Shown: piece by piece, positions 10,483 to 55,265 of the stretch | Position numbering within the stretch: the first letter of the stretch is position 1 | Layout: each line of letters opens with the position of its first letter | Program-made: the position numbers and the translations under genes | Notes under the pieces: model-generated | What the model was told of the DNA's origin: nothing | Databases searched by the model: none | Seen by the model: only the letters and a program-made list of their open reading frames with translations | DNA from: a virus | IMG/VR virus record: IMGVR_UViG_3300042691_019786 | Length of the DNA stretch: 64,000 nt | Reading direction: 5' to 3' (one strand)

Positions 10483-10555
10483 TGCGCCCCACGGGCCTCG
10501 AACCCGTAACCTTTCCGTTAAAAGCGGAAAGCCCGTCCACTTGAGCTTCGAGCGC
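10483..10555 (-). tRNA. tRNA-Lys(TTT)
   Basis: Cloverleaf; ttccg-ctTTTaa-cggaa. Confidence 0.85.
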
Positions 10556-10579
10556 AAATGTCACCTTATGGTGAATTTG

Positions 10580-10653
10580 TACCCCCGATGGGACTCGAAC
10601 CCATGACCCCTCCATTAAAAGTGGAGTGCTCTAACCAGCTGAGCTACGAAGGC
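10580..10653 (-). tRNA. tRNA-Lys(TTT)
   Basis: Cloverleaf; ctcca-ctTTTaa-tggag. Confidence 0.92.
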
Positions 10654-10696
10654 GTAATCTTTCCATTAACACTCGTAACCAGCTTGGCCGAGTGCT

Positions 10697-10738
10697 TTAT
10701 CGTTTAATCTTTCGCTTAATGTTGATAAATGTTTTCAT
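10697..10738 (-). CDS. Putative Lys-rich leader peptide MKTFINIKRKIKR
   Basis: Short ORF directly upstream of two tRNA-Lys genes; same MKT start as the other leaders. Confidence 0.6.
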   Translation of the reverse strand: MKTFINIKRKIKR

Positions 10739-10776
10739 AGTTTCTATTTTTTAATGTTTTTATAATTTTATTTTAG

Positions 10777-10903
10777 TGGGGGCGGCTGGAATTGCACCAA
10801 CGTTTTATCAAATTTACAGTTTGCGTGAATAATTTTGATTTTGCTGCAAACATTCTTTAATCTAAAAGGCAGAATGTGATTTATCTAACATTTCAACACC
10901 CCC
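10777..10903 (-). ncRNA. tRNA-like RNA with CAGCAA stem and a GTA anticodon-like hairpin
   Basis: GGGGGTG/CGCCCCCA acceptor, T-arm-like hairpin, internal CATTCT/AGAATG-TTTGCAGCAA, caaa-ctGTAaa-tttg. Confidence 0.55.
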
Positions 10904-11000
10904 ATAATATGTGTCTCTCCACATCTGTCACACCACTTTGTATTCTGTTAACCTCACGATGGGCCCTAACGGTAAAACGGTGTCAAAAACCAGTATATTT

Positions 11001-11672
11001 TTATTTTCTTCCTTTAACCCAACCTTCGTTTAGGTATGTGTCTAACTCTTCTTTCTTAATCTTCTTATTAGAACCATCCTTAGTTATCCAACATGTACCA
11101 TATTGACTGTTTGATTCACCAATACCTTTACCTTTAGATGATTCAGACATTTTCTTTTTAGTTTGGTCAGAATGATTTTTACCTCTAAATGGTGAACCAA
11201 AATCAAAACCAGAATGTTTTTGACCATTACTAATATTCTTACCTCTAATCAACTTTTCTTCTTCAGTTAAATTTGAATGGTAATTTTTAATAATTACAAT
11301 TTTAAATTTTTCACCATACTTTTCTTTTAGTTTTTCATCACATTTAACCCTACCTAACTTTACACCGTCTTCGGATATAAACCCTCCTTCACCACCAACA
11401 ACTAAATTCATACACTCATCTTTTGCTATTTCATCTAAAGTAACGATTTCTTTTTCTCTTTTTTTCAAATCGGCTCTAGTTTCACAAAATTCTAAAATTT
11501 CTCGCTTGAAATTTGATTTGCCATGTTTTCTAATAGCTAACCTCAATCTATTCCCACTACCTAAATATCCATCATCTAGACTATCGGTACTATGCATTCC
11601 TATATAATATCTACCACTTAATATATTAGTAGTTTTATATATAAAATGATACTTTTTTTCTTTCCTCGCCAT
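11001..11672 (-). mobile_element. GIY-YIG (Seg-like) homing endonuclease with NUMOD3
   Basis: FIYKTT..YYIG.H..Y.GSG and GKNHS.TK.K.S motifs; lies in a tRNA cluster. Confidence 0.88.
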
Positions 11673-11733
11673 AATTATATTCTTTTAATATAAATATGTG
11701 CTAAAACGTAAAAAGTACAAAAAACGGTCTCGG

Positions 11734-11805
11734 AGCAGATGAGGTGAATCGAACACCCATCCGAGCCTTGGCAAGGCCCCGTAATAGCCATTATACGACA
11801 TCTGC
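11734..11805 (-). tRNA. tRNA-Gly(GCC)
   Basis: Cloverleaf; loop ttGCCaa; U73. Confidence 0.88.
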
Positions 11806-11864
11806 ATAGAGTGTGGTAGGGCAGCTGTCCCTTGAGGCACCCACACTTGTTGTTCCTCTTTTTG

Positions 11865-11938
11865 AGCGGATATTCAGAATCGAACTGAAATCCCAGGCTT
11901 GGAAGGCTAGTATAATAAAACCATTATACGATATCCGC
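11865..11938 (-). tRNA. tRNA-Gly(TCC)
   Basis: Cloverleaf; loop ctTCCaa; U73. Confidence 0.88.
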
Positions 11939-12029
11939 AAATTTTGAAGAATGACAGTCACGGCCATCTCTAGGTTCATTCTTCTAATGTTAACCGTGGC
12001 AAAATATGGCTCGACCCTAGTTAACCTTG

Positions 12030-12102
12030 AGCCTTTAGTCGGATTCGAACCAACGACCCCTTCATTACAAGTGAAGTGCACTACCAGCTGTGCTATAAAG
12101 GC
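12030..12102 (-). tRNA. tRNA-Thr(TGT)
   Basis: Cloverleaf; ttca-ctTGTaa-tgaa. Confidence 0.9.
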
Positions 12103-12170
12103 AAAAATGAATTTATTACGTTACTTAATAACTACTAAGTCGATAAAATTCTAAACGGTCTCATAGCGAG

Positions 12171-12252
12171 TGAGAGCAGTAGGATTCGAACCTACTCAGC
12201 GTTAACAACAGATTTACAGTCTGCCCCAGCTCTCCAACTCTGGCGTGCTCCC
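12171..12252 (-). tRNA. tRNA-Tyr(GTA)
   Basis: gcaga-ctGTAaa-tctgt; long variable arm. Confidence 0.9.
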
Positions 12253-12259
12253 AAATAAC

Positions 12260-12321
12260 AAGATAGTATGTTACGTGTCAAAATAAAAGTTTGATGTTTG
12301 GTAATTTGCTGAAACTATCTT
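12260..12321 (-). ncRNA. TCAGCAA-stem RNA displaying a Lys(TTT) anticodon-like hairpin
   Basis: AAGATAGT-TTCAGCAA...tcaaa-ctTTTat-tttga...ACTATCTT; lies just after a promoter motif. Confidence 0.55.
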
Positions 12322-12395
12322 TTATTATTATATTGCAAATGTACAAACTATTTTTTACATATGCAAGTTTTTTTTGTGAAAAAAATTCACTTTTG

Positions 12396-12469
12396 ATTTC
12401 CGAGAGGGCTTCGAACCCCCAAATTCTCCCTTCAAAGGGGAGTGACTTTGCCAGTTTGTCTATCGGAAA
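12396..12469 (-). tRNA. tRNA-Gln(TTG)
   Basis: ctccc-ctTTGaa-gggag. Confidence 0.85.
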
Positions 12470-12536
12470 ATAGTCTAATTCTATGCAGTGGGGCTTCACC
12501 ATATGGCACCCTATGAATTAGTAACAGTCTCTCGTG

Positions 12537-12610
12537 TCGAATAGGTTGGATTCGAACCAACGTGCTCGGCATTCCAAATGCCGCTAGATAAACCACTCCT
12601 ATACTACTCG
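12537..12610 (-). tRNA. tRNA-Pro(TGG)
   Basis: cggca-ttTGGaa-tgccg. Confidence 0.88.
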
Positions 12611-12617
12611 TTATGTG

Positions 12618-12690
12618 TCTAAATGGCAAGGTTCGAACTTGCGGTCTCTGCGTCCCAAACGCAGCGGAATACCAACTTTCCCACATCTAG
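12618..12690 (-). tRNA. tRNA-Pro(TGG)
   Basis: ctgcg-ttTGGga-cgcag. Confidence 0.88.
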
Positions 12691-12753
12691 ATATTTTTAA
12701 ACCAACATGTCAAATAACGTTCCTATTAATTGGGTGGCATAGGTGCCATAAAC

Positions 12754-12788
12754 AAAAAAACCCAGTCTAGATTTCTCTGAACTGGGCC
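12754..12788 (-). terminator. Attenuator terminator 1
   Basis: ggCCCAGT...ACTGGG-TTTTTTT; the 5' arm is also complementary to ACTGGGC inside the leader ORF. Confidence 0.8.
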
Positions 12789-12809
12789 TTATAAGTGTTT
12801 TTATATTTC

Positions 12810-12911
12810 TTATAATGTAGTCAAGTCAAACAACATGACACGCCCAGTCGATTGCGGTTGTCCGCCTTTCGTATACTGTTTCGGTTGATATGTCATATAA
12901 GTTGTTTTCAT
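12810..12911 (-). CDS. Leader peptide 1 MKTTYMTYQPKQYTKGGQPQSTGRVMLFDLTTL
   Basis: Residues 1-20 are only M,K,T,Y,Q,P,G; downstream tRNAs are Pro, Pro, Gln, Tyr, Thr, Gly, Gly, Lys, Lys. Confidence 0.85.
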   Translation of the reverse strand: MKTTYMTYQPKQYTKGGQPQSTGRVMLFDLTTL

Positions 12912-12920
12912 TTTCTTTTA

Positions 12921-12996
12921 TATTAAATATATGGTTTTTTTAAAAAGTTTAAATTTATACTACAAATGTACGAACTATTTTTACATTTGTCAAGTT
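12921..12996 (-). promoter_or_regulatory. Bacteroidetes-type sigmaA promoter (TTGACA...TACATTTG) plus TATATTTAAT element upstream of leader 1
   Basis: Matches the -33/-7 consensus; nearly identical to 55161-55235. Confidence 0.75.
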
Positions 12997-13011
12997 TTTT
13001 TCAAACTTTTT

Positions 13012-13473
13012 TTAATTTTTTTTATTTTTATTTATTTCATCCCTTAATTCAGCTGCTTTTTCGTATTCTTCAGCTTGAATCGCTTCTTCTAATAATTCTT
13101 CCAAAGACTTAGGGTCTTCAAGTTCAAATGGCATGTCTGAAACTTCTAACTTAACAATTTCACCGTCTTCAACTTCCCATATAGACTTTTTAAAGTATAA
13201 TTCATCTTCATGATAATACTCTACTCTAGTAGGTTCACCATATTCAGTGTCTATTTTGAATTTTTCATCATCATCAGTTATTTGTCTAGCGTTAGACAAC
13301 ACTTTGATTAATTTGGATAATTCATCACTAAACCCTTCATTTTTAGGTTTTTCCTCTTTTTTATTTTTCTTCTTAGATTCATCTGAATTCTTTTTATTAA
13401 AGAACTCTTCGAATAATTCGTCAAATGTTTTCATTTTACTTTTTTTTTTTAATAAATTTTTCATGTAACCCAA
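13012..13473 (-). CDS. UvrB/UvrC-motif protein
   Basis: C-terminal LEEAIQAEEYEKAAELRDEI; start probably MKTFDE. Confidence 0.75.
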   Translation of the reverse strand: MGYMKNLLKKKSKMKTFDELFEEFFNKKNSDESKKKNKKEEKPKNEGFSDELSKLIKVLSNARQITDDDEKFKIDTEYGEPTRVEYYHEDELYFKKSIWEVEDGEIVKLEVSDMPFELEDPKSLEELLEEAIQAEEYEKAAELRDEINKNKKN

Positions 13474-14499: not shown

Positions 14500-15321
14500 T
14501 TAAGATTTTAATAAAATTTCTTTTATGTCTGCAACTAATTTTCTATGTCCATCACCATATTTTGTCCACGCTAAGCCCATTTTCTTTAAGTCATAGTGTT
14601 TCAATATGGTTGAATAATCAGTCACTCCTTCTGGGTTACCAATAATATAAATACTGTCAGCTAATTCAGCGGCCAATCTGATATCATGTGTTGAGAATAT
14701 GATTGTATTATATTCATCAGCATCCAAAATCTTTTGAAATGATGTTTTTACTTTTTCAATGTTCCCAACATCTAATCCAGAGAATGGTTCATCCAAAATC
14801 ATAAAGTGTTTAGATGATAACATTTGCTCAATGATTGCTGTTCTTTGTCTTTGACCACCAGATAATTCACATGAGTATTTATCTTTATGTTCTAACAAAC
14901 CCCATTCAGTCAAAAACTCAGTAATCAACTTATCTTTTTCTTCCTTTGTTGCTTTGCTTTTTCTCAAAGCATATTGACAAATTTGATACACTGTTTTATG
15001 TCTAAACAACGTGTATTTTTGGTCCACAAACCCTACATCACCCTCAGCTAACACTTTAGCATCGTCTGCAACTTCAGTACTCATGTCACTAATCAAAATC
15101 TGACCAGACATTGGTTTAACCAATCCAGTCAACGCTCTGAACAAAGTAGATTTACCTCTACCAGAACGACCTAACACAGCAATTGTTTGGCCAGTAGATG
15201 CGTGACCATCTCTTACTATGTTTTTCTCAATGATTGAAACATCTTTAAGAATTGTTTTCCCTTCATATCCAACACTAATGTTATCAACATATAATATTGT
15301 ATCTTGTTCTCTATAACTCAT
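14500..15321 (-). CDS. ABC transporter ATP-binding subunit (TauB/SsuB-like)
   Basis: GRSGRGKS, LSGGQ, LDEPF and STHD motifs. Confidence 0.92.
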   Translation of the reverse strand: MSYREQDTILYVDNISVGYEGKTILKDVSIIEKNIVRDGHASTGQTIAVLGRSGRGKSTLFRALTGLVKPMSGQILISDMSTEVADDAKVLAEGDVGFVDQKYTLFRHKTVYQICQYALRKSKATKEEKDKLITEFLTEWGLLEHKDKYSCELSGGQRQRTAIIEQMLSSKHFMILDEPFSGLDVGNIEKVKTSFQKILDADEYNTIIFSTHDIRLAAELADSIYIIGNPEGVTDYSTILKHYDLKKMGLAWTKYGDGHRKLVADIKEILLKS

Positions 15322-15597
15322 ATTATTTTCTTTTTTTAGATGCTAAAATTAAAAACTTATTTTTTGGTTTATCAGTTACTAATGATGTTGTGGGAACTGG
15401 TTTATCTGAATATTTATAATATCTTTCAATAATGTCATTAAGATAATCACTTTCAATATTATACCTACTTTTCATAACTTCACCAATTTCATTAAATATT
15501 AAATCAGCTTCATACGTTCTTTTATCATGAATTAAATCTTTATTATCCCATAACAATACTTTTAATTCATCTATTGTTATAATTTCATTTTTCATAT

Positions 15598-16407
15598 TTA
15601 ATAGTTTGAATATCTGAATATCAACTTACGTAATTTAGTGATGATAAAGTCTAACGATAACCCTACAACAACTATTATTATTTGTAGTGCAATTACTCTA
15701 CCATTGTCACCCAATTTATCACTATTTTTAATTAAGAATCCCATACCACCAGCAGCTGCTAATATAGATTCAACCGTTACAAGCATCATCCAAACAATTG
15801 CTAAGTTTTGTCTTACCAACTCTAACACATAATCTAATCTACCTTTGATAACTACTTCCCATAGAATCTCCCAACGATTGCATCCTAGCGTTTTTGCGTG
15901 GTCCAATTCTTCTTTGGGGATGTCTTGTATCATTTGGATAAGAGATGTCGTTAGAAACGTTGTCATGAACACTACAAGCACCCATACTTGAAGACTTCTA
16001 GCATCGTTGATGATAATTGCTAAATAGAAAGCAATACCAGTCAATGGAAGATATCTTAATTTGGATATAAACGTTCCTACTGGCTTCATAATTGGAATTG
16101 CTGTTGAATATGCAATAACCAATGAGATAATCACTGATAAGAACACAGCGTGTGCACATAAAGCGATTGAACTAACAATGTGAACTACTAACCCTTCAGC
16201 CCATAAATCTCCAAACCCATGAATAACTTGTGTTGGTGTTGGGAACATATGTGATGTTCCAAACATATTTAGTGTCCAAAACACCAATATAGCTACTAAC
16301 CAACCTAACATAATAGTACCTTTAGAAGTACCTTTTAAATCTTGAAATGGTTTTATTAAATTTTTCATATTTTTATTTTTTAAAAGTTTAAAAAAAGCCC
16401 CTAACAA
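15598..16407 (-). CDS. ABC transporter permease (TauC/SsuC-like)
   Basis: FPTP, RYLP, EAA-like AKTLG and W..LV..E motifs; start probably MKNLIK. Confidence 0.85.
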   Translation of the reverse strand: MLGAFFKLLKNKNMKNLIKPFQDLKGTSKGTIMLGWLVAILVFWTLNMFGTSHMFPTPTQVIHGFGDLWAEGLVVHIVSSIALCAHAVFLSVIISLVIAYSTAIPIMKPVGTFISKLRYLPLTGIAFYLAIIINDARSLQVWVLVVFMTTFLTTSLIQMIQDIPKEELDHAKTLGCNRWEILWEVVIKGRLDYVLELVRQNLAIVWMMLVTVESILAAAGGMGFLIKNSDKLGDNGRVIALQIIIVVVGLSLDFIITKLRKLIFRYSNY

Positions 16408-16438
16408 ACGCTAGGGACTTTAATTAAGTTGTGGTAGA

Positions 16439-18253
16439 TTATTGTAACAATGTTATTTCTACACGTCTGTTTTTCGCTTTACCATCAGCAGTAGCGTTGC
16501 TTGCAACTGGATTAGTATCACCTAAACCATCCACAAATTGGATACGAGTTCTAGGGATTCCACGATTAACCAAATAATCAACAACTGAGTTAGCACGACC
16601 TCTAGACAATACCATGTTAGATTGTGAGTTACCAACGTTATCAGTGTGACCAATAACTTTCAATTTGGTTTGCTCAGCTTGAATTAACAAGTTGTAGATA
16701 GTTTCTAGAGTTTTTTCAGACCCTTGGATAGTTGTACTTGCAGTTGCAAAGTTAATATTCCATTGTCCGTCAGCCATCACTTTAGTTTTATTTTCAGCAT
16801 AGTTAAACGTTTGTGTTTTACCAGCATCAACATCAGTAATTGATTTCAAAAAGTATAAGTTAACAGCATCTTCGTATTGTACAACACCATCTTTACAAGT
16901 TTCATTGAAACCACATGGATTCAAATCTGTCAAGTACATAGATACTTGGTTGTATACCGCTTTATATCTGTTGTTACCATCAGTGATTCCGTAGTATTGC
17001 ATAGCATCAGCGTAGTTAAACACTCTTGTACCACCAATATTATAATCTAAACCACCTTTTGTACCTTTTTGACCTTTAAACAATTTATACCAATAGTCAG
17101 CTGTTTCAAAGTTATATGTTTTTGCAACACATTCAGCAGCTTTACGAGCCCATCTATCGTATTGTTTAATTTGGTTACATGCTGTATAAGTTTGTTTCAA
17201 GATATTTGTTACTTCTTTTTCATGTTGTAACGCCCATTCTTTAACAACTATGATTGATGTAGCCATTTGGTTAACAAAGTCCTTTGTAGATACAACATCT
17301 GTAAACCCAGTCAATGCATCAAAAGCCATTTTATCACCTGGTGTCCACGTAGTAGCACCATCAATTTTATGGTTAATTGTTTTACCAGTTAATTTACCAT
17401 CTTTAACTTCTTTCAAAGGTACAGTAAATCCAGTGTTTTGAGATTTAATCAATTCTTTTACAGAGTTGATAAAGTCATCATCTTGTGATGGTACAAAGTT
17501 CAATGCATTAGGGTCATAAGTTGTTGGGTCTGGGTTAACTGGTACACCATTTGCAGATGCATAGTTTACTGCTACTACCCAATCTCCGTCACCGATAACA
17601 GATGACACAACAGCACCTCTAAGCGTTTGTGGGTTATCTTGCCATACTTTAGGACCTATTAACTTATCTTCACCATATGATAAACCGATTGCACCGATAT
17701 TAACTACATGATATTTACCTTTACCAAATTTCTCATCTAACGCTTTTTGTGTCGTTGTGATATAGAAAGGTACACCATCACCCATTATCGATACAGCAAA
17801 AGCTGATTTTTGTGATTTAGGGTATGCAACACCTTTGCTAAATTCTTCAACGAACTTGATTTGCATATCGCGTAAACCACCAACCATGTCTTGTCGCACG
17901 ATTTCTAAGTTTACGTTAGCTGCTTCCATTAGAGACCCTTCAGTTGTACGAGGTCCACCATTTGCTACAATCATACCAGAGTTACCATTCCATGCATATT
18001 CAGCAATTCTAATTAATTTGCTTTCGTCAAAGTTACCAGAAACTTCTGCACTTGGCAACGGTAATTCAGCACCTTTTGTTACGTTATTCAAATCATCAGT
18101 ATTGATTGTTAACGCTTTCATTTCTTTCGATACTGCAACTCTTAAACCTGGAGAAACAAAGTATACGATTGTTAATACGATAGCTAAACCTAATCCTACG
18201 ATTACACCCTCAGCTAAAGTTGTCAATTTTGGTTGTCTTAAAATTCTTCCCAT
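16439..18253 (-). CDS. Periplasmic-binding-fold protein fused to a C-terminal OmpA peptidoglycan-binding domain
   Basis: N-terminal TM anchor; S.G.D motif; GHTD..G....N..LS..RA..V and NRRVEI motifs. Confidence 0.85.
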   Translation of the reverse strand: MGRILRQPKLTTLAEGVIVGLGLAIVLTIVYFVSPGLRVAVSKEMKALTINTDDLNNVTKGAELPLPSAEVSGNFDESKLIRIAEYAWNGNSGMIVANGGPRTTEGSLMEAANVNLEIVRQDMVGGLRDMQIKFVEEFSKGVAYPKSQKSAFAVSIMGDGVPFYITTTQKALDEKFGKGKYHVVNIGAIGLSYGEDKLIGPKVWQDNPQTLRGAVVSSVIGDGDWVVAVNYASANGVPVNPDPTTYDPNALNFVPSQDDDFINSVKELIKSQNTGFTVPLKEVKDGKLTGKTINHKIDGATTWTPGDKMAFDALTGFTDVVSTKDFVNQMATSIIVVKEWALQHEKEVTNILKQTYTACNQIKQYDRWARKAAECVAKTYNFETADYWYKLFKGQKGTKGGLDYNIGGTRVFNYADAMQYYGITDGNNRYKAVYNQVSMYLTDLNPCGFNETCKDGVVQYEDAVNLYFLKSITDVDAGKTQTFNYAENKTKVMADGQWNINFATASTTIQGSEKTLETIYNLLIQAEQTKLKVIGHTDNVGNSQSNMVLSRGRANSVVDYLVNRGIPRTRIQFVDGLGDTNPVASNATADGKAKNRRVEITLLQ

Positions 18254-24496: not shown

Positions 24497-24732
24497 TATT
24501 AAGAGTAAATTTAAGGTTTCATTTACTCTTCTGCATTTCTGCCATCATAAATTACCGCTAAACCGCTAAATAAAGTTTCATTTATAATAGTCGAGTTTTT
24601 ACTTTAAAACCATCACTACGAAAAAAGCAATTACTGTATGGTCGTAATTTACCTTCAGTTTTTAATTCCAGAATGTTTAAAGAGCCTATCTGCGGACATT
24701 TAACTGAAAACGTGACCTTTCGCTCTACCTTG

Positions 24733-24807
24733 TGACTTCGGAAGGATTCGAACCTTCGACCTACGCATTAGAAGTGCGTTGCTACTATCCAGCTGAGCTA
24801 CGAAGCC
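24733..24807 (-). tRNA. tRNA-Arg(TCT)
   Basis: acgca-ctTCTaa-tgcgt. Confidence 0.9.
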
Positions 24808-25123
24808 AATTTGTGGAATTTTTCGGCTTTCCACTACCTATCTGACCATTCGCATCAGAACCAGTGGTCTCTGTTTTTTTCATCGTATTATTACTAATTA
24901 GGTACCACCCTAACCATACGACTATATGAACGGTAGTTCAAACGTATTTTATCATAGACATTCTACATATATACGTGGGCCATGGACAGCCCAATATTTT
25001 TTAGTGAGTAGCATTGTGATTTATGTGAGGCTCTACTGAGAAATATTTTAACGCTTTGCGTGCCTTTTCATGTTCACTACTCTAAAGATTCTACTCTCTC
25101 CATTACTGAGAATCACCTAAATG

Positions 25124-25197
25124 TGGTCCTTGATGGGCTCGAACCATCGACCTACTGATTATGAGTCAGTTGCTCTAACCTACTGAGCTAAAGGACC
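25124..25197 (-). tRNA. tRNA-CAT (Ile2 or Met)
   Basis: actga-ctCATaa-tcagt. Confidence 0.88.
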
Positions 25198-27642: not shown

Positions 27643-27643
27643 G

Positions 27644-27717
27644 TGGAACAGAAGAGAATCGAACTCTCCACTCTCTCCTTGCAAGGGAGAAACGCCAGCC
27701 TTGGTACATGCTGCCCC
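27644..27717 (-). tRNA. tRNA-Ala(TGC)
   Basis: tctcc-ctTGCaa-ggaga; G3:U70. Confidence 0.88.
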
Positions 27718-27790
27718 AGATAAATGAAGAAACCACGGTTTTACGGTGAATTACCAACTTCATTTTTATTTTAGACTTTTAAAAGTCAAG

Positions 27791-27862
27791 CGGTCTATGA
27801 GAGAATCGAACTCTCACCACAGCATAGACAGTGCCGTATCCTAGCCATTGGACCAATAGACC
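27791..27862 (-). tRNA. tRNA-Asp(GTC)
   Basis: Loop ctGTCta; G73. Confidence 0.88.
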
Positions 27863-28021
27863 AAATAAAACACCCAGTTACACGATTTGTTCTACACCAA
27901 ACTCAACACTTCGAACAAATCCCTTCAACTAACTACTCGTTTGGTTCTTTCGTTAGTCTCCCCCTCCTATCTCTAGGTTTAGGGTTAGAAGCCTACCAGT
28001 CTTACCTCACTAAGTGTTTTG

Positions 28022-28095
28022 TGGAGGATATCGGAATCGAACCGATGACCCCTTGCGTGCAAGGCAAGTGCTCTAGCCAGCTGAGCTAATCCCCC
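28022..28095 (-). tRNA. tRNA-Ala(TGC)
   Basis: cttgc-ctTGCac-gcaag; G3:U70. Confidence 0.92.
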
Positions 28096-28187
28096 TTTAT
28101 AGGTTTGGTAACTATTCTCAAGTTTCGAACCTCTTAATAGCTTTTACATCTCCACAATCGCCAAACCACGCAATTGTTTACCATGGG

Positions 28188-28259
28188 CGGAACTAGGGGG
28201 AATCGAACCCCCATCTTCTGATAGACAGTCAGACATCGTAGCCGTTGGACCATAGCTCC
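28188..28259 (-). tRNA. tRNA-Asp(GTC)
   Basis: tctga-ctGTCta-tcaga. Confidence 0.9.
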
Positions 28260-28331
28260 TTATATTCGGTGGGAACACTATATCATCCGCTCATAGAGTC
28301 TGTCAATAATATAGGTTCATCACCTCACTTG

Positions 28332-28402
28332 TATTGGGTACGGGATTCGAACCCGTGTCAACCGCTTCACTGCGGCCATCCTATCCACTAGACGAACCCA
28401 AC
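28332..28402 (-). pseudogene. tRNA-like gene (Glu/Asp-type body) with a 6-nt anticodon loop
   Basis: gccgc-agtgaa-gcggt; other arms intact. Confidence 0.55.
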
Positions 28403-28472
28403 AACCGACTCAATCAGTCTGCAAACCTTTATCATCGGCTCTCTTGCAAGTGTTGCAGCACTCGCTTGATAG

Positions 28473-28544
28473 TACTCCCAGAGAGAATCGAACTCTCATT
28501 ACCAGATTGAAAACCTGGGGTCCTAACCGTTAGACGATAGGAGC
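28473..28544 (-). tRNA. tRNA-Glu(TTC)
   Basis: ccagg-ttTTCaa-tctgg. Confidence 0.88.
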
Positions 28545-28615
28545 GTGTTATCTGTCTTTCCAGATTGTCATACTCATCCTCTCCACCGATACGTAACTAT
28601 AAGTGCGAGCGTTTG

Positions 28616-28687
28616 CATTCCGTGAGGGATTCGAACCCTCGCCTTCACTTAGAAAGAGTGACGTGTTAACCCCTTCACTAACGGAAC
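28616..28687 (-). tRNA. tRNA-Glu(TTC)
   Basis: tcact-ctTTCta-agtga. Confidence 0.88.
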
Positions 28688-28698
28688 ATTTAATTTTG

Positions 28699-28771
28699 TG
28701 AGAAGGGTGGGATTCGAACCCACATGGCTGGATTTTCAGTCCAGTGCATTGACCAACTTTGCTACCTTCCC
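28699..28771 (-). tRNA. tRNA-Phe(GAA)
   Basis: ctgga-ctGAAaa-tccag. Confidence 0.9.
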
Positions 28772-28776
28772 ATTAT

Positions 28777-28809
28777 AGTGCGATGCTCTACCAACTGAGC
28801 TATCTGTCC
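28777..28809 (-). pseudogene. 5' half of a tRNA, truncated at the anticodon loop
   Basis: GGACAGA-TA-GCTCAGTTGGTAGAGC-A-TCGCA-CT, then stops. Confidence 0.7.
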
Positions 28810-28996
28810 ATTGTTTTAATTTCACATTGCAAATGTATTAATAATATTTTTAATTTGCAAATATTTTTTTATTTTTTTTTCTAATCTTTCAAAGAACGTT
28901 TTCTTTAATTTTGTTTTACAAATGTATGAACTATTTTTTAAACTTCCAAATTTATTTGTAATATTTTTTTATTTTTTTTTTCAAACCTATATAAAC

Positions 28997-29027
28997 AAAA
29001 AAAGGTTGACTGTTTAGGTCAACCTTT
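28997..29027 (-). terminator. Attenuator terminator 2
   Basis: AAAGGTTGAC-ctaaaca-GTCAACCTTTTTTT; AGGTTGACCT also pairs with AGGTCAACCT in the leader. Confidence 0.85.
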
Positions 29028-29049: not shown

Positions 29050-29139
29050 TTAACTACATACATAGGTTGACCTCCCTAGGCTAAAATCGGCCTCGGCTGC
29101 GAAGAAGTCAAATTCAAATATGTTATTAATTGTTCTCAT
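29050..29139 (-). CDS. Leader peptide 2 MRTINNIFEFDFFAAEADFSLGRSTYVCS
   Basis: Run FEFDFFAAEADF; downstream tRNAs are Phe, Glu, Glu, Asp, Ala, Asp, Ala. Confidence 0.88.
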   Translation of the reverse strand: MRTINNIFEFDFFAAEADFSLGRSTYVCS

Positions 29140-29204
29140 TTTTTATCTTTATTAATTAAATATACACTAATATACTAAAAGTTCGTTTATTTGTCAAGTT
29201 TTTT

Positions 29205-29708: not shown

Positions 29709-29746
29709 ACTTATAAATATAGTAACACTATTAAAAAACTTAGTTG

Positions 29747-29830
29747 TACGGATAGTCAGACTCGAACTGACACGCATATTTCAGCAAATGCTTCTAAGGC
29801 ATTCGGGTCTACCAATTCCCCCATATCCGC
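29747..29830 (-). tRNA. tRNA-Leu(TAG)
   Basis: aatgc-ctTAGaa-gcatt; long variable arm. Confidence 0.9.
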
Positions 29831-29835
29831 ATATG

Positions 29836-29915
29836 TAGCCCGAGAGGGAGTCGAACCCTCACCCCGAAGGACTGGAGCTTAAATCCAGCGTGTATACCAA
29901 TTTCACCATCGGACC
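29836..29915 (-). tRNA. tRNA-Leu(TAA)
   Basis: ctgga-ttTAAgc-tccag. Confidence 0.9.
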
Positions 29916-29923
29916 GTTTATTG

Positions 29924-29996
29924 TAGGGGTAGAGGGATTCGAACCCCCGACCTATTGCATGTAAGGCAATTGCTGCTACCGCTGAGCTATACCCCT
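29924..29996 (-). tRNA. tRNA-Val(TAC)
   Basis: attgc-ctTACat-gcaat. Confidence 0.9.
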
Positions 29997-30188
29997 ATTT
30001 TTTATCTTTAATCATATTTGTTGCACAACAATCATATAGTTCTGCTATGTTTTTCTTTCCAGGTACATTTAGATTATCCAGTAACCCACTATCAATCCAT
30101 TTCTGAATTATTTCTTCACGTATGTTTTTCATATGTTCAATATTGTCTGATATTGAATGACCTAAGTTTTCCATGTTCTTAATTTTTG

Positions 30189-30259
30189 TTGGACTGGGAA
30201 TTTCGAAATCCCGACTTCTGCCATGTTAAAGCAGCACTCTGCCTCTGAGTTACAGTCCA
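30189..30259 (-). tRNA. tRNA-Val(AAC), unusual A34
   Basis: ctgct-ttAACat-ggcag. Confidence 0.7.
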
Positions 30260-30271
30260 ATATGCTAGGTT

Positions 30272-30622
30272 TTACCCTAGCTTTATAAATGTTTCATTCT
30301 TGATGGCTTTGCTTATCCATCTAGCTAATTCAGAACCTCTGATTTCAGCTTCAAAACTAGTTGTACCTAAATCACTTGATAATTGAATATTCAACTGGCC
30401 ATCATTAGCTGATTCTATTGTTTTTATTGGAAATTGGTATAATTCACCCATAACTACGATGTTGTAATACAAATTACCAGCAATGTAGTGACTAAACGTT
30501 GCCATATTCTTAGACTTCATTAAGTCTTTTTTGATTTCTATTTCGTTAAGCATAACCATTTTCTTTTTTCCATTTATCATGCATTTGATTAATTGTATGG
30601 TAAGGACTTCCTTCACCTTCAA
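30272..30622 (-). CDS. Hypothetical protein
   Basis: ORF inside a tRNA operon; start probably MLNEIE. Confidence 0.55.
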   Translation of the reverse strand: MKVKEVLTIQLIKCMINGKKKMVMLNEIEIKKDLMKSKNMATFSHYIAGNLYYNIVVMGELYQFPIKTIESANDGQLNIQLSSDLGTTSFEAEIRGSELARWISKAIKNETFIKLG

Positions 30623-30866
30623 TTATTTCATCAAACCCATTTTCTTTTGTTATTACAGACTCTTCTGATTTAATCGCACCTCTGTACTTATCACCATAGC
30701 TACCAGTAACAGTTTTTGATGCTGGGTCGATGTCGCCCCAAGATGTTCTCCAACTTCTTGGTTCGATGTACTCAATGTAATATTTTTTTCCAGTTTCTGG
30801 GTAGAAAACTACCTCTCTTCCAGTTTCCTCTCTGTTAACTAGGAAGTCTTTTCTTACGTCTGTCAT
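30546..30866 (-). CDS. Hypothetical phage protein
   Basis: TGK.Y.IE.I...WGDIDPA.K...G.YG.KY.G pattern. Confidence 0.7.
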   Translation of the reverse strand: MTDVRKDFLVNREETGREVVFYPETGKKYYIEYIEPRSWRTSWGDIDPASKTVTGSYGDKYRGAIKSEESVITKENGFDEIIEGEGSPYHTINQMHDKWKKENGYA

Positions 30867-31072
30867 AACACTTGTTTTTACTTTCTTTTAGTCTTTAACA
30901 ACTTTTTTATTATTTTACCCCAATTGAAATTACTTTCCAATTTGTTTACGTTTGGTCTAAGGTATTTTCTAGACCCTTCCATTTTTCCGCTAATCACTGT
31001 TCTAGTGGTTATTTTGTCGTTGTTTGTTTCCATACTCTTTTTTTTACTTTTATATTATTATTTTATCTTTTG

Positions 31073-31143
31073 AGGCATCGACTGGATTCGAACCAGTGTG
31101 GGAGGTTTTGCAGACCTCTGCCTAGCCACTCGGCCACGATGCC
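31073..31143 (-). tRNA. tRNA-Cys(GCA)
   Basis: gaggt-ctGCAaa-acctc; U73. Confidence 0.92.
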
Positions 31144-31147
31144 AAAT

Positions 31148-31180
31148 AAAAAAGGCCTATCAGTTATTTGATAGGCCTTT
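31148..31180 (-). terminator. Attenuator terminator 3
   Basis: AAAGGCCTATCA-aataac-TGATAGGCCTTTTTT; alternative pairing with the leader end GGTGGGCT..GTATGTT. Confidence 0.85.
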
Positions 31181-31203: not shown

Positions 31204-31278
31204 TTAACATACATAGCCCACCACGTTTACCACTAGTAAACATAAAAGTAACGCTGATTGTGTGTAAAAAGTTTTCAT
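31204..31278 (-). CDS. Leader peptide 3 MKTFYTQSALLLCLLVVNVVGYVC
   Basis: Run LLLCLLVVNVV; downstream tRNAs are Cys, Val, Val, Leu, Leu. Confidence 0.88.
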   Translation of the reverse strand: MKTFYTQSALLLCLLVVNVVGYVC

Positions 31279-31367
31279 AGTTTTATTCTTTTTTATTATT
31301 AAATATATCACATCTATTAAATGTTATACAAATGTACGACATTTTTTTAGATTTGTCAAGACTTTTT

Positions 31368-39712: not shown

Positions 39713-40426
39713 TTAAGCTAATTTCAATGGTCTTAAATATTCTCTTAGGAACGCATTAACTGGTCCACCAATTTTTTCTTCCCATTGTTTATAATTCTTA
39801 GCATTTTTCTCTTCCAATTGAGATAAAGCTTTCTCTGATGGCTTGTGTCTACTCCATGGTAACGTTTCTGGTACAAAGTCTGGATATAACGTTCTGTTAA
39901 ACACCCTTTCATCAACTAAGAAAACAAACGCTGTTAATTGGTCACCCAAATCTGGTTCATGAAACTCTTGCAACAACACACCAGCTTCACGCATAGTTTG
40001 CATGTGTCTATTCAAAGTTCCCAATCTTTCTGGGTTGTTGTTTGTTGTACCACCGTTAAGAATAATAAATGTTTTATCTTTATCAGCCCATTTGTTATAT
40101 ATTTGTTGATGTGGTTTTAACCCTTCAACAGTTCTACCATAATCAACGACAGCGTGACCAAATTGGATTCCTTGTTGAATCGGGGACATGTTATACGGAA
40201 CCAACCCATACATTCTACGTTCTAAGTACATTTCACTCTTACGTGGTGTTGAATCAGCTTTAACTTTACATAACCCTAAACGTCTGTAAAACTCTTGCAC
40301 ATCAATTTTTTCTTCATAATACGATTCTTCGTAAAATGCCATAGATGTGTCCCATGATGAAATGTCTAATATTCTAACATTTGCATCTAAACACCATTCA
40401 TATCCAGTTTTTAATATCTTTTCCAT
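39713..40426 (-). CDS. Pth2-like peptidyl-tRNA hydrolase domain protein
   Basis: IQ.GHAV, IILNGG and F.EPDL...LTA motifs. Confidence 0.6.
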   Translation of the reverse strand: MEKILKTGYEWCLDANVRILDISSWDTSMAFYEESYYEEKIDVQEFYRRLGLCKVKADSTPRKSEMYLERRMYGLVPYNMSPIQQGIQFGHAVVDYGRTVEGLKPHQQIYNKWADKDKTFIILNGGTTNNNPERLGTLNRHMQTMREAGVLLQEFHEPDLGDQLTAFVFLVDERVFNRTLYPDFVPETLPWSRHKPSEKALSQLEEKNAKNYKQWEEKIGGPVNAFLREYLRPLKLA

Positions 40427-41733
40427 TAATTTCCTATTTCAATTAAATGTGATACAGTACATTGTGCTGAGTTATATACTATATATTCGTTATTTCTTAG
40501 GTCAGCGCCACCTTTTGCAAACACACTATCAAATCCTTCATTATCTAACACTTTCTTAGATAACTTATAACAGCTTGAGTCATGGTGCAATATTTCTTTT
40601 TGTTTACCCAAATGCACATCAAACAATGCCAAAAACGCTTTGTTATCACCACCATGAGCCCAATAAGAACCTCTTAACGATGTGTAACCAATAGATTTTT
40701 GTGCTTTGTCAGCAAAGTAGATACCATCACCAAACATTGACCCAGTATGTACCGCACCAGATGGTCTGATAAGTAACCCAGTTTGTAAAATGTTAAACCA
40801 GTTCTCATTTCTTGACCCATGCCAGTATAGTCTACGTTTCTTAACTTCAACTTTATCCATGTGTTTATCAAATATTTTTTGTGTTTTGTTGTTAACAACC
40901 TTGAACACACGTTTCATTTGATTCACATTTGGACCCATCAATTTTTTGATAAGTTCAAGCGTTTCAGTATCATTTTCAACCTCAATAGATAATCCCATTT
41001 GGTCTAAGATAGTAACTTCAGATACTTCTTCTTTTTTACCTTCAGCTTCAGCCTCAGCAGCTTTCTTAGCAGCTTCTCTTTGTTGTTTAATCAACTCAAC
41101 TTGACCAGCCATTGTATCCAACGCTGATTGTTCGTTATCAATCAATCTTTGTGCGTTAGTCAAACTAACATCATTACTAATCTCTCTAAACAAATGGTCT
41201 TTTACGTTATCCATTCTTCTAGGGATAATTGTATAAAGTTTCAATAACATATCATTGATATGTTTGATATCTACACCAATAGCAATCAATCCACTAATGT
41301 TAGTGATAATCTCTTGTGCAGCGGTAACTTGTTGTTCCGATACAGCTTCTTGCGTTACCTTATAGTTACGTTGGATTGATTTGTTGGCAAATGACATCAA
41401 TTCATCAACCAATTTACGCACAATCTCATCTTTGATATTTGCAACTTTATTATCAACTGGTTTTGATTCATCCACAACTGGTTCAGCCAACAAATCAGTT
41501 ACATCTGTATAACCTTTTGTTTTTGATAGTTTTTGTTTCAACACACTATCCCATTTTGAACTAGGTTTATATTCAGTTGTTAAAGACTTGCCAACACGAC
41601 CATATTCACATTTGATACGGCCATCTGATAATTCTTCCATAATATAAACTTTATTACTTTGGCTGGTCAAACCATTATCAACTGATACATGTATCAGTTT
41701 TGCGTATCTTAAACCGTTCTCTTTTACTATCAT
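40426..41733 (-). CDS. WGR-domain poly/mono(ADP-ribose) polymerase
   Basis: YGRVG (WGR-like), LYT.IP regulatory helix, WHGS, G.MFG.GIYFA..S..Y and NEYIVY (H-Y-E triad). Confidence 0.9.
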   Translation of the reverse strand: MIVKENGLRYAKLIHVSVDNGLTSQSNKVYIMEELSDGRIKCEYGRVGKSLTTEYKPSSKWDSVLKQKLSKTKGYTDVTDLLAEPVVDESKPVDNKVANIKDEIVRKLVDELMSFANKSIQRNYKVTQEAVSEQQVTAAQEIITNISGLIAIGVDIKHINDMLLKLYTIIPRRMDNVKDHLFREISNDVSLTNAQRLIDNEQSALDTMAGQVELIKQQREAAKKAAEAEAEGKKEEVSEVTILDQMGLSIEVENDTETLELIKKLMGPNVNQMKRVFKVVNNKTQKIFDKHMDKVEVKKRRLYWHGSRNENWFNILQTGLLIRPSGAVHTGSMFGDGIYFADKAQKSIGYTSLRGSYWAHGGDNKAFLALFDVHLGKQKEILHHDSSCYKLSKKVLDNEGFDSVFAKGGADLRNNEYIVYNSAQCTVSHLIEIGN

Positions 41734-47770: not shown

Positions 47771-47773
47771 ATT

Positions 47774-51848: not shown

Positions 51849-51904
51849 ATTGGCAAATGTACAGAATTAATTTTTATTAACCAAATTTATTGATAAATAT
51901 CTTA

Positions 51905-52840: not shown

Positions 52841-52896
52841 AGTTAAGTTTTACATTAATAAATATATAAAACTATACTAATAAAGATAACATTTTG

Positions 52897-52981
52897 CGGA
52901 GAGCAGAGGAATCGAACCTCATACCAAAAAGGTACGTCACGATTAGCAGTCGGACCCTATCGCCATCAAGGATTACTCTCC
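52897..52981 (-). tRNA. tRNA-Ser(GCT)
   Basis: Loop ctGCTaa; long variable arm; G73. Confidence 0.85.
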
Positions 52982-52987
52982 ATTTTG

Positions 52988-53060
52988 TACCCCCACAGAG
53001 ATTCGAACTCCGATACTGGCCTTAGAAGGGCCATGTCCTATCCAGTTGAACGATAGGGGC
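52988..53060 (-). tRNA. tRNA-Arg(TCT)
   Basis: tggcc-ctTCTaa-ggcca. Confidence 0.88.
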
Positions 53061-53069
53061 AGATTGTTG

Positions 53070-53142
53070 TACACCTACAGAGATTCGAACTCCGATTTAT
53101 CGCTTCGTAGGCGATTGTCCTATCCAGTTGAACGATAAGTGC
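53070..53142 (-). tRNA. tRNA-Arg(ACG)
   Basis: atcgc-ctACGaa-gcgat. Confidence 0.88.
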
Positions 53143-53148
53143 ATGTTG

Positions 53149-53218
53149 TACCGACTGTGAGGTTCGAACTCACTTAACCATCCATATGAGGGACGGTCCT
53201 TTTCCACTAAGTGTCGGC
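53149..53218 (-). tRNA. tRNA-CAT (Met/Ile2) with a shortened D arm
   Basis: cgtcc-ctCATat-ggatg. Confidence 0.7.
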
Positions 53219-53224
53219 ATTTTG

Positions 53225-53326
53225 CTCACCCACTAGGATTCGAACCTAGGACCTAACGGTTAACACTCCTTGTATGAACTTACTTATCATACCTAGCCGT
53301 TTGCTCTACCACTGAGCTATGGGTGA
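53225..53326 (-). tRNA. tRNA-Asn(GTT) with a 30-nt insert (53265-53294) in the anticodon loop
   Basis: aacgg-ct[insert]GTTaa-ccgtt; the rest is canonical. Confidence 0.8.
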
Positions 53327-53336
53327 ATATTTGTTG

Positions 53337-53410
53337 CTCTCCCTCTAGGATTCGAACCTAGGACCCACGCATTAACAGTGCGTTGCTCTAACCTACTGAG
53401 CTAAAGGAGA
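53337..53410 (-). tRNA. tRNA-Asn(GTT)
   Basis: acgca-ctGTTaa-tgcgt. Confidence 0.92.
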
Positions 53411-53420
53411 ATATATTTTG

Positions 53421-53497
53421 TACAGAAGGTGAGATTCGAACTCACATGTGACCAACTACCCTTTCTACAAGATATAAGCTTGAGGGGATACATCTGC
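53421..53497 (-). tRNA. Non-canonical tRNA-Ile(TAT) lacking a normal D arm
   Basis: Acceptor and T arm present; caag-ctTATat-cttg; D-loop-like TAGTTGGT lies 3' of the anticodon arm. Confidence 0.6.
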
Positions 53498-53503
53498 ATC
53501 TTG

Positions 53504-53575
53504 TTGTCTAACCCAGACTCGAACTGGAAATACTGCCGTATCAGAGCAGCGTGATAACCATTTCACCATTAGACA
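53504..53575 (-). tRNA. tRNA-Ile(GAT)
   Basis: ctgct-ctGATac-ggcag. Confidence 0.88.
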
Positions 53576-53586
53576 AAATTGTGGAA

Positions 53587-53775
53587 TTACTTCCACTGTG
53601 TTTTTCGGTAGTGTTTCCAAGTTTTATACATTCTAACTTGATAACTCATTTTGTTTCCATAGAAACGAATACCTTCATCCCAATAAATTGGGTAGAAATC
53701 ATTGATTAACATGATTCGGTATTGTCTACCATTTTGTGCTTTGTTCAGTTTTGCTCTGTTTACGTTTTTACTCAT
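53587..53775 (-). CDS. Small basic protein ending WKHYRKTQWK
   Basis: Start MSKNVN; preceded by a uORF and hairpin. Confidence 0.65.
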   Translation of the reverse strand: MSKNVNRAKLNKAQNGRQYRIMLINDFYPIYWDEGIRFYGNKMSYQVRMYKTWKHYRKTQWK

Positions 53776-53845
53776 AATGTTGTGAGTCTGTGAATAGCAG
53801 ACCTTACAACATATCAAATTCTTTTTTCATAAAATTAAATTTTAG

Positions 53846-53932
53846 CGGAGAGGGTGGGACTCGAACCCACACACCTCTAGGGCCTACCGCTTTCAAGGCG
53901 GTTGCAGTTAGGCCAACTCTGCTTACCTCTCC
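53846..53932 (-). tRNA. tRNA-Ser(TGA)
   Basis: accgc-ctTGAaa-gcggt; long variable arm. Confidence 0.9.
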
Positions 53933-53964
53933 GTATTTATAATTAACTAATATTCAGTTAATTG

Positions 53965-54035
53965 CACAAGTAGAGAGACTCGAACTCCCGTCAACGGTTT
54001 TGGAGACCGCTATTCTACCACTGAACTATACTTGT
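53965..54035 (-). tRNA. tRNA-Trp(CCA)
   Basis: gcggt-ctCCAaa-accgt. Confidence 0.9.
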
Positions 54036-54075
54036 GTATTAATTTACCAACATGTCAAAGAACTTACAGTTCAAG

Positions 54076-54148
54076 GGTGATTAACCAGAATCGAACTGGT
54101 ATCAATAGAATCACAATCTATCATGTTAACCGTTACACCATAACCACC
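54076..54148 (-). tRNA. tRNA-His(GTG)
   Basis: G-1:C73; ataga-ttGTGat-tctat. Confidence 0.9.
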
Positions 54149-54150
54149 AT

Positions 54151-54729
54151 TTATTTATTCTTACCAGCGTATGTTTCAGTTTGTGAATGACAATTAGGAC
54201 ATAAAAAACGTAAATTTTCTATTCTATTATCATTATTTATACCGTTAATATGGTCTATTTGTAATATTAGTTTACCACCCATCCATTCACCAGTATTACC
54301 ACAACTTACACATTTATACTCTAATAAATTACTTCTTAACACTCTATTCTTTAAATGACCAGAATTATATTGTGAATTTTCACAAAATATTTCAGAATCA
54401 CTATATTTTACCTTAGTAACGTTTCTTCTAGGGTTACCTTTATATAAATCATTATCTATTCCATATAAATCAAAATACCTTTTTAACGTTCTATAATTAC
54501 CAGCTTTTAGTGTTAAACCCATTTTTTCTAACACTTCAGCTTTAGAATTTGAAGATTCTATTAAAGGTTTTAATTCTTCAAAACTCCATTTATGATAATA
54601 TTTTTTAGGTTTAAGACCATATTTATCTGCCCAATATCTTATAGTCGTTAATGATTTATTAGTTTTTTTACTTATTTGTCTTAAAGATAAACCTTCTTTA
54701 AGAAGTTTTTCTAATTCTATTTTTTCCAT
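54151..54729 (-). mobile_element. HTH-HNH homing endonuclease
   Basis: C..CG...DHING...DNR.ENLR.LCPNCH. Confidence 0.9.
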
Positions 54730-54786
54730 ATTTATGTTTTTATATAAATATAGAATAATAGTTCAAAAAGTAAATATCACTTTAAA

Positions 54787-54821
54787 AATCTAGCACTCTA
54801 ACCAACTGAGCTAACGCCACC
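54787..54821 (-). pseudogene. 5' half of a tRNA-His-like gene, truncated at the anticodon loop
   Basis: GGTGGCGT-TA-GCTCAGTTGGTTAGAGT-G-CTAGA-TT, then the HNH promoter. Confidence 0.7.
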
Positions 54822-55001
54822 GTCTATTGTAACAAATATTATTATGTTACCGTTTTCTTTTTTAAATCTTAGGTCACCGTTGTAACCCATTTGTTTTGCT
54901 TTTTCTTTATACTCGTCAACTATTTCATCAAAGTTTTCGTTAAACTTTTTTACTTTTACTTTTCCGAGTGGTCTTACTAATTCTTCCATAGTTATAAGCA
55001 T

Positions 55002-55034
55002 AAAAAAAGCCTTGATTTGTGGTCAAGGCTTTTT
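55002..55034 (-). terminator. Attenuator terminator 4
   Basis: AAAAAGCCTTGA-ccacaaa-TCAAGGCTTTTTTT; GCCTTGACC also pairs with GGTCAAGGT in the leader. Confidence 0.85.
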
Positions 55035-55059
55035 GTTGATTACTTCATAAAATGTTTTA

Positions 55060-55155
55060 CTATTCTATGATGTTATTTAACATACCTTGACCGTTATGGA
55101 AACTATTGCGTCTCCAATTATTAATCGAAATCATATGTATGTTAATTGTTCTCAT
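55060..55155 (-). CDS. Leader peptide 4 MRTINIHMISINNWRRNSFHNGQGMLNNIIE
   Basis: Rich in R,I,N,H,M,S,W; downstream tRNAs are His, Trp, Ser, Ile, Ile, Asn, Asn, CAT, Arg, Arg, Ser. Confidence 0.88.
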   Translation of the reverse strand: MRTINIHMISINNWRRNSFHNGQGMLNNIIE

Positions 55156-55265
55156 TTTTATATTAAATATATCGTTTTTTCTAAAAAGTTTAAATTTATA
55201 CTACAAATGTACAAACTTTTTTTCTATTTGTCAAGTGTTTTTGTAATTATTTTTTTAATTTTTTC

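Follow-up and report, generated by a model that had tools for sequence, protein, structure and literature searches.

A 64,000-nucleotide stretch of viral DNA (IMG/VR record IMGVR_UViG_3300042691_019786), referred to here as the window, carries four transfer RNA (tRNA) operons on its minus strand, each of which consists of a promoter, a leader open reading frame (ORF) of 24-33 amino acids (aa), an intrinsic terminator and a block of tRNA genes. As the original prediction had proposed, each unit is very probably a transcription attenuator of the ribosome-mediated type, in which the tRNA monitored by the leader is also the product under control. This reading is supported by a permutation test, by the co-variation of leader and cluster content, by matched changes between antiterminators and terminators, and by the geometry of the ribosome footprint. 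The system as a whole is best read as a putative codon-level homeostat of tRNA supply.

The anatomy of these units, the match between leader composition and downstream tRNAs, the agreement of individual codon boxes, the co-variation and the geometry can all be observed directly by sequence inspection and comparison. The leader ORFs encode 33, 29, 24 and 31 aa, begin with M-K/R-T, and end 23-30 nucleotides (nt) upstream of the terminator, whose stem is directly followed by a T run in every case. All four ORFs were located on the minus strand at the predicted coordinates, together with their terminators and the antiterminator strands in the distal ORF that can pair with the terminator 5' arm, and the tRNA gene content agrees with the amino acid sets assigned to the clusters (K/T/Y/Q/P/G, F/E/D/A, L/C/V and R/I/N/H/M/S/W). 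The components are as follows.

12963..12993 (-): host-type promoter (TTG-N20-TAnnTTTG) of leader 1, exact pattern
12922..12931 (-): TATATTTAAT phage promoter-like motif, leader 1
12810..12911 (-): leader ORF 1, 33 aa, control residues K/T/Y/Q/P/G, 18 of 19 codons before the antiterminator
12840..12849 (-): antiterminator 5' strand (region 2) of attenuator 1, duplex -15.7 kcal/mol
12761..12786 (-): intrinsic terminator 1 stem-loop, T run after
10482..12690 (-): tRNA operon 1, Pro, Pro, Gln, Tyr, Thr, Gly-TCC, Gly-GCC, GIY-YIG gene (11001-11672), Lys, Lys
29167..29197 (-): host-type promoter of leader 2, one mismatch in the -7 box
29155..29164 (-): TATATTTAAT motif, leader 2
29050..29139 (-): leader ORF 2, 29 aa, codons 8-19 being 12 F/E/D/A in a row
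29064..29073 (-): antiterminator 5' strand of attenuator 2, with upstream pairing too, as a 1:2 hairpin
29004..29024 (-): intrinsic terminator 2
27643..28771 (-): tRNA operon 2, Phe, Glu, Glu, a tRNA of undetermined type, Asp, Ala, Asp, Ala
31329..31359 (-): host-type promoter of leader 3
31298..31307 (-): TATATTTAAT motif, leader 3
31204..31278 (-): leader ORF 3, 24 aa, codons 10-17 being 8 L/C/V in a row
31209..31223 (-): antiterminator 5' strand of attenuator 3
31154..31177 (-): intrinsic terminator 3, with tRNA-Cys beginning ~11 nt downstream
29746..31143 (-): tRNA operon 3, Cys, conserved 106-aa and 116-aa ORFs, Val (AAC, degenerate), Val-TAC, Leu-TAA, Leu-TAG
55204..55234 (-): host-type promoter of leader 4
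55162..55171 (-): TATATTTAAT motif, leader 4
55060..55155 (-): leader ORF 4, 31 aa, control residues R/I/N/H/M/S/W, codons 4-18 all cognate
55084..55092 (-): antiterminator 5' strand of attenuator 4
55009..55029 (-): intrinsic terminator 4
52896..55001 (-): whole of operon 4, in its first part a 67-aa ORF, a tRNA 5' fragment near 54820 and an HNH gene, then His, Trp, Ser-TGA, Ile-GAT, Asn, an Asn-like tRNA with a 30-nt insertion, CAT (53150-53222), Arg-ACG, Arg-TCT, Ser-GCT

The composition of each leader fits the tRNAs of its own operon. When whole ORFs in the window are scored, with no region chosen, 69 of 113 codons are cognate to their own operon, and the corresponding count from codon 2 to the antiterminator is 56 of 77. 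The permutation test that had been proposed alongside the prediction was passed decisively: none of 500,000 random partitions of the amino acids into sets of 6, 4, 3 and 7 matched either value. Blocks with two isoacceptors are preceded by leaders that contain both codon boxes (AGA + CGC, TCG + AGT, GGC + GGA, and TTA + CTT/CTA). The proposed division of all 20 amino acids among the four leaders stands in that these sets agree with tRNA content, but it does not embrace every gene, as some tRNA genes are ungated. The gated set spans all 20 amino acids and includes rarely used codons (CGC represents 1% of phage Arg codons), and the GC fraction at third positions of the control codons is 0.34 compared with 0.19.

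Relatives of this virus are IMG/VR contigs of up to 353 kb, two of which encode a large terminase, and the source of the window is therefore a giant tailed phage. A detector that ignores composition returned 96 distinct leader-like ORFs in related phages, and 84 of these were scored. Among the 84 units, 772 of 998 control codons are cognate, compared with 284 +/- 28 when cluster labels are shuffled (maximum 399); such per-unit counts overstate independence because the units share ancestry. In cases where the isoacceptors of one amino acid (Leu, Ser, Arg or Ile) sit in separate operons, the leader codon belongs to the box of its own operon's tRNA in 43 of 44 instances (~5 lineages). The four-way partition of the window also occurs in contigs G002, G003, G005 and G007, within the reach of those contigs. 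In the complete 288-kb genome G001, only two of the operons remain, both still preceded by their leaders, and in the region scanned the search detected no orphan leader left over from the missing two. Other phages divide the code differently. Seven smaller units are present in LR756502.1 and LR745206.1 (F/H/K/W, R/S, E/Y, I/G/A, N/L/T/V/M, D/P(/Q), and a Gln run that precedes Gln tRNAs), with leaders that follow the altered partition. Two operons are found in L170, three in L173, L199 and L206, and different arrangements again in L169, L218, L233 and L239. Leader content therefore tracks cluster content over approximately nine partitions as well as among isoacceptors, which is the co-variation that the proposal had called for.

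We give almost no credence to the idea that short AT-rich ORFs and terminators happen to lie ahead of tRNA clusters by coincidence. Short ORFs are common at 32% GC, and the detector also yields a few ORFs that do not match (units 41, 69, 82 and 94). However, the pattern was equalled by no random partition, recurs in dozens of phages across the various partitions, and is absent when the same detector is applied to T5 or to the fetched part of the DLP6 array. Coincidence is effectively refuted by the permutation and codon-box tests together with the antiterminator comparisons described below.

Orthologous leaders diverge in a manner that favours composition over sequence. Pairwise differences stay within the leader's own set in 268 of 268 cases for the R/I/N class and in 36 of 38 for the K/T/Y class. 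The values for the remaining two classes are lower (141 of 218 and 484 of 1339), partly because the fixed 9-codon window extends into the N-terminal segment. Residue order is reshuffled among orthologues while composition is kept, which indicates that selection acts on composition rather than on the peptide sequence. For this reason, we find it very improbable that the small ORFs encode functional peptides, or that the leaders are trans-acting RNAs whose terminators just end transcripts. These ORFs are indeed conserved across phages, the L/C/V class peptide is hydrophobic, and attenuator leader products elsewhere have gained trans roles (PMC7968998, PMC6614838). Yet leader content shifts with cluster content, and the sequence of the distal ORF follows that of the terminator.

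This dependence on the terminator is evident throughout the clade. In all 84 scored units the distal ORF can pair with the terminator 5' arm, and the upstream complement to this arm has a median energy of -13.7 kcal/mol, compared with -6.1 for 75 ordinary terminators from the same genomes. Terminator arms are diverse (63 distinct 8-mers), and the distal ORF segment changes with them, such that a leader's own arm pairs better than an orthologue's different arm in 214 of 232 comparisons for the R/I/N class and in 94 of 130, 448 of 662 and 8 of 10 further comparisons. For the F/E/D/A class, a structure-blind alignment showed covariation at a level that 3 of 500 shuffles attained and that lay above every slid control, which by itself is modest support.

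The position of the control codons is equally constrained. The cognate fraction is 0.89-0.95 at codons -8 to -4 before the antiterminator (0.92 at -4) and then falls to 0.64, 0.48 and 0.29, the last of these at codon -1, after which the background of 0.26 is reached. Cognate codons thus end 3-4 codons short of the antiterminator, a distance equal to one ribosome footprint, and this edge is what such a footprint predicts. When a ribosome with a footprint of +12 nt is included in a folding model, the terminator arm is released at the same codon as the cognate edge. The spacing between stop codon and terminator is 23-36 nt across units. In the model without a ribosome the antiterminator is the default structure (0.73-1.0), so any failure of translation would give read-through, as expected of a switch that senses general ribosome availability or uncoupling (host translation shut-off or developmental timing) and for which codon content is secondary. 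Such general sensing appears improbable, since it needs neither a codon-box-exact match that follows tRNA relocation nor several separately tuned leaders per genome.

We infer that the leaders are translated, that translation is coupled to transcription, and that read-through is regulated by a specific trigger. Under this attenuation model, RNA polymerase would start upstream of the leader and a ribosome would translate it. If all control codons are read fast, the ribosome would cover region 2 during synthesis of the terminator, the terminator would fold, and transcription would stop. Scarcity of even one charged tRNA of the set would make the ribosome pause at least four codons upstream of region 2, which would then be free to pair with the terminator 5' arm, and RNA polymerase would continue into the tRNA block. 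The phage tRNA so produced would restore fast reading and close the switch, creating negative feedback. The four multivalent leaders would jointly audit all 20 amino acids, along with each codon box that has a tRNA in the block.

The predicted sensor would be blind to cause and thus would respond alike to tRNA cleavage and amino acid starvation. The most likely trigger is the loss or shortage of host tRNA, because more tRNA would not cure starvation. Nearby genes for tRNA repair and maturation fit this reading; besides RNA ligases, the window encodes a CCA-adding enzyme and a Pnk-like protein. Moreover, tRNAs of T5-like phages counter retron PtuAB and other anticodon nucleases, with expression level deciding rescue (PMC11555353). 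As proposed here, those tRNAs stand in for host tRNAs destroyed by defence, and the ability of phage tRNA dosage to overcome tRNA-cleaving systems fits with tRNA loss as the trigger. Rescue in that case is achieved through a strong promoter, however, and the report mentions neither attenuation nor leaders.

TATATTTAAT occurs 7 times in the window (1.5 expected), and related motifs precede many protein genes, which identifies it as a general phage promoter-like motif. The shared element noted in the original prediction is thus present upstream of all four leaders but is not leader-specific, and we rejected it as an attenuator-specific element. Among the 84 units, a host-type promoter lies upstream in 58 and a phage-type motif in 70.

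Several observations weigh against the attenuation model or restrict its reach. Twelve of the 96 detected units were excluded from the pooled statistics because the cluster was truncated, the start was wrong or the set was near-saturated, and, given the relatedness of the units by descent, the approximately nine partitions constitute the independent evidence. In leaders 1 and 4, the equilibrium model lets the antiterminator re-form as soon as the ribosome is at the stop codon, so termination would have to depend on steric or kinetic effects. A 1:2 pause hairpin is plausible; it is clear in leaders 2 and 3 and appears in 71 of 84 isolated folds, with a median z of only -1.1 that is modestly above codon shuffles. 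Finally, the HNH gene of operon 4 has a promoter-like motif of its own in front of it, ATATTTAT, and the following promoters lie downstream of terminators.

12336..12366 (-): internal host-type promoter before tRNA-Tyr, a possible bypass for Tyr/Thr/Gly/Lys
28949-28919 and 28860-28830 (-): two host-type promoters between terminator 2 and tRNA-Phe, a possible bypass of attenuator 2

These promoters had been flagged as a caveat when the attenuators were first proposed, and all three are true consensus matches. Together with the ATATTTAT motif, they suggest that control may be partial in the window genome. It is a real possibility, though one we hold to be somewhat short of probable, that the attenuators are genuine in the clade but are partly or wholly bypassed here, with constitutive internal promoters providing a basal supply to which the leaders add an inducible increment, chiefly for F/E/D/A. 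A promoter inside the cluster in 15 of 84 units is consistent with this arrangement, which is compatible with the attenuation model and alters its scope. On the other hand, leader 2 is intact, its peptide is identical in close relatives, and a host-type motif stands between the terminator and the first tRNA in only 4 of 84 units; the distance between these two has a median of 24.5 nt (40 nt or less in 53 units). The rarity of bypass in the clade means that it limits this instance rather than the system.

Leader-peptide attenuators such as trpL, hisL and pheL, and the multivalent thrL and ilvL, control amino acid biosynthesis operons in enterobacteria. The phage units share with these trp/his/ilv-type systems a short leader ORF between the promoter and the regulated genes, control codons cognate to the downstream genes and positioned such that a ribosome stalled on them would not cover region 2, an antiterminator strand in the distal ORF, and a mutually exclusive intrinsic terminator before the first gene. 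Unlike them, the phage units regulate tRNAs and not enzymes, and their leaders hold up to 7 amino acids (more in relatives), resolve codon boxes, and tile the whole code. The regulated genes are tRNAs and a few small or mobile ORFs, with no biosynthetic enzyme, transporter or synthetase among them, and the tRNA product places these units outside the family of biosynthetic and aminoacyl-tRNA synthetase attenuators. T-box riboswitches likewise achieve antitermination in response to tRNA status, and they bind uncharged tRNA directly, without a translated leader. A T-box was rejected as an explanation, as an Rfam search of the window gave tRNA matches only.

Among individual precedents, pheL is a leader-peptide transcription attenuator (PMC3082878). 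In E. coli, the pheM leader peptide senses charged tRNA and controls pheST (PMC5371410), an arrangement in which a comparable leader governs a component of the translation apparatus, but there the target is the charging enzyme for one amino acid rather than tRNA genes for all 20. The trn operon of Anabaena PCC 7120, repressed by TrcR, is a reserve set of tRNA genes that stays silent until translational stress induces it (PMC10272220). The phage blocks would likewise be normally silent and stress-induced, whereas the Anabaena system employs a protein repressor at initiation of one 26-gene operon, without codon-specific sensing. The architecture of the phage units is explained without an RHH repressor. 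No description of attenuated tRNA genes was found in the literature searched, which left most subscription journals outside its reach, and neither attenuation nor leaders appear in the publications on RsoM2USA, on bS21 phages or on huge phages. What these units probably represent is a known attenuation mechanism with a new target class, tRNA genes.

If true, the model would carry attenuation of the classical kind into phages and onto non-coding tRNA products, under direct negative feedback. The reason for the near-complete tRNA sets of phages has long been debated, with codon compensation and the replacement of destroyed host tRNAs as competing answers. The leaders make this question testable, since their sequences state which codons the phage monitors, and each leader could serve directly to report tRNA supply in vivo. 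Because the gated set includes rarely used codons while some of the ungated extras read heavily used ones (AGA and probably ATA), both hypotheses may hold for different genes.

Similar leaders also occur outside this clade. In the cultured Caulobacter phage CcrBL9, which offers an immediate test system, a leader with 33 of 38 cognate residues (p = 2.6e-7) precedes a P/T/K/L/H/A/S/W block, its terminator not having been picked up by the detector. A second leader, with 18 of 31 cognate residues and a clear terminator and antiterminator, precedes a Y/V/I/Q/N/R/F block, and no leader matches the Glu/Asp pair. The Ralstonia phage RsoM2USA carries a leader-terminator unit 18 nt before its tRNA cluster (antiterminator -16.9 kcal/mol), and the leader's match to this broad tRNA set was judged by eye. 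Lak-B1 (L189:2812, MK250020.1) has a candidate leader-terminator ~24 nt before its main tRNA array (antiterminator -19.3 kcal/mol), which, ahead of so broad a cluster, is suggestive only. It seems reasonably probable that a codon-resolved tRNA homeostat operates in large phages of several lineages: the Bacteroidota-type clade, the phages of 634 and 642 kb, and the jumbo phages of Caulobacter and Ralstonia, where it would probably have an independent origin. Leaders would audit the whole code and only the block for slow codons would be switched on, providing an inducible counter to any tRNA-cleaving defence without recognition of the defence protein.

Variant arrangements were also encountered. 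One phage carries two R/I/N-class attenuators in tandem with different terminators (L013:11942 and 13502, plus strand). Leader-terminator units with no tRNA detected behind them occur in the 634 and 642 kb phages (L184:6376, L177:11659, L178 and L186), where they may gate protein genes or undetected RNAs. A 14-mer scan gave mostly chance matches, and a pattern search for the K/T/Y class matched G001 only. Neither the leader-2 pattern nor the operon-marker protein was found in prokaryote genomes by narrow queries, from which absence in hosts is not implied.

Leader content also aids tRNA annotation. In relatives, one sequence type of CAT-anticodon gene lies behind ATA-only leaders and another behind ATG leaders, which sorts these genes into Ile2 and elongator Met. 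By this comparison, the CAT gene at 53150-53222, whose D arm is degenerate and on which the Met assignment of operon 4 rests, is likely an elongator Met, and the ungated CAT gene at 25123 is likely Ile2. The other ungated tRNAs are a second Arg-TCT (24732), initiator-type Met genes (63264 and 62595) and an amber suppressor (59723). The ungated Arg-TCT and CAT pair (24732-25197, minus strand) fits the heavy use of AGA (63%) and ATA (29%). Ser-GCT (52896-52982) was detected only with relaxed ARAGORN settings.

Several unusual tRNA-related elements lie on the minus strand of the window. The tRNA-Asn-like gene at 53225-53326 has a 30-nt hairpin insertion immediately 5' of its GTT anticodon, possibly a small tRNA intron or the mark of a pseudogene. 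Lone tRNA 5' halves are found at 54780-54823 and 28770-28812, the first of which was severed by an HNH endonuclease insertion at 54151-54729. A repeated element with a TTCAGCAA core occurs at 12313, 21360, 21525, 24430, 62581 and 63481; several copies combine an acceptor-like stem and a T arm without a normal anticodon arm and thus resemble tRNA-like RNAs. The 106-aa protein (30546-30866) is encoded inside or next to tRNA arrays in most loci fetched, including those of DLP6 and RsoM2USA, and is a candidate for a tRNA-related function. It belongs to no known family, and neither of the two small operon proteins matched the Pfam and PHROG families tested or any Atlas cluster. The 67-aa ORF (54798-55001) lies immediately behind terminator 4 and would be co-regulated with the tRNA block; relatives show a comparable gap of ~190-200 nt.

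The window has a GC content of 31.7%, holds nearly all of its genes on the minus strand, and encodes ~37 tRNA genes as well as a DNA ligase and homing endonucleases. The TTG-N20-TAnnTTTG pattern, which we take to be the Bacteroidota housekeeping promoter, occurs 29 times on the minus (coding) strand and 2 times on the plus strand, compared with 1.1 in shuffles, and this enrichment indicates that the host is probably a member of the Bacteroidota. No cultured close relative was found by DNA or leader peptide searches, and the assignment of the relatives to bS21 phages was rejected (0 of 5). Recoding of TAG is unsupported, because only 3 of 46 long ORFs stop at this codon (TAA 40, TGA 3). Despite this scarcity, the ungated amber suppressor tRNA (CTA; 59723-59794, minus strand) is present and is found in several relatives. 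Also on the minus strand are NAD salvage genes (NAMPT and a NUDIX-domain protein) with a PARP catalytic-domain gene (38-3040 and 40426-41733), and phage-borne ABC transporter ATPase, permease and OmpA-domain genes (14500-18253).

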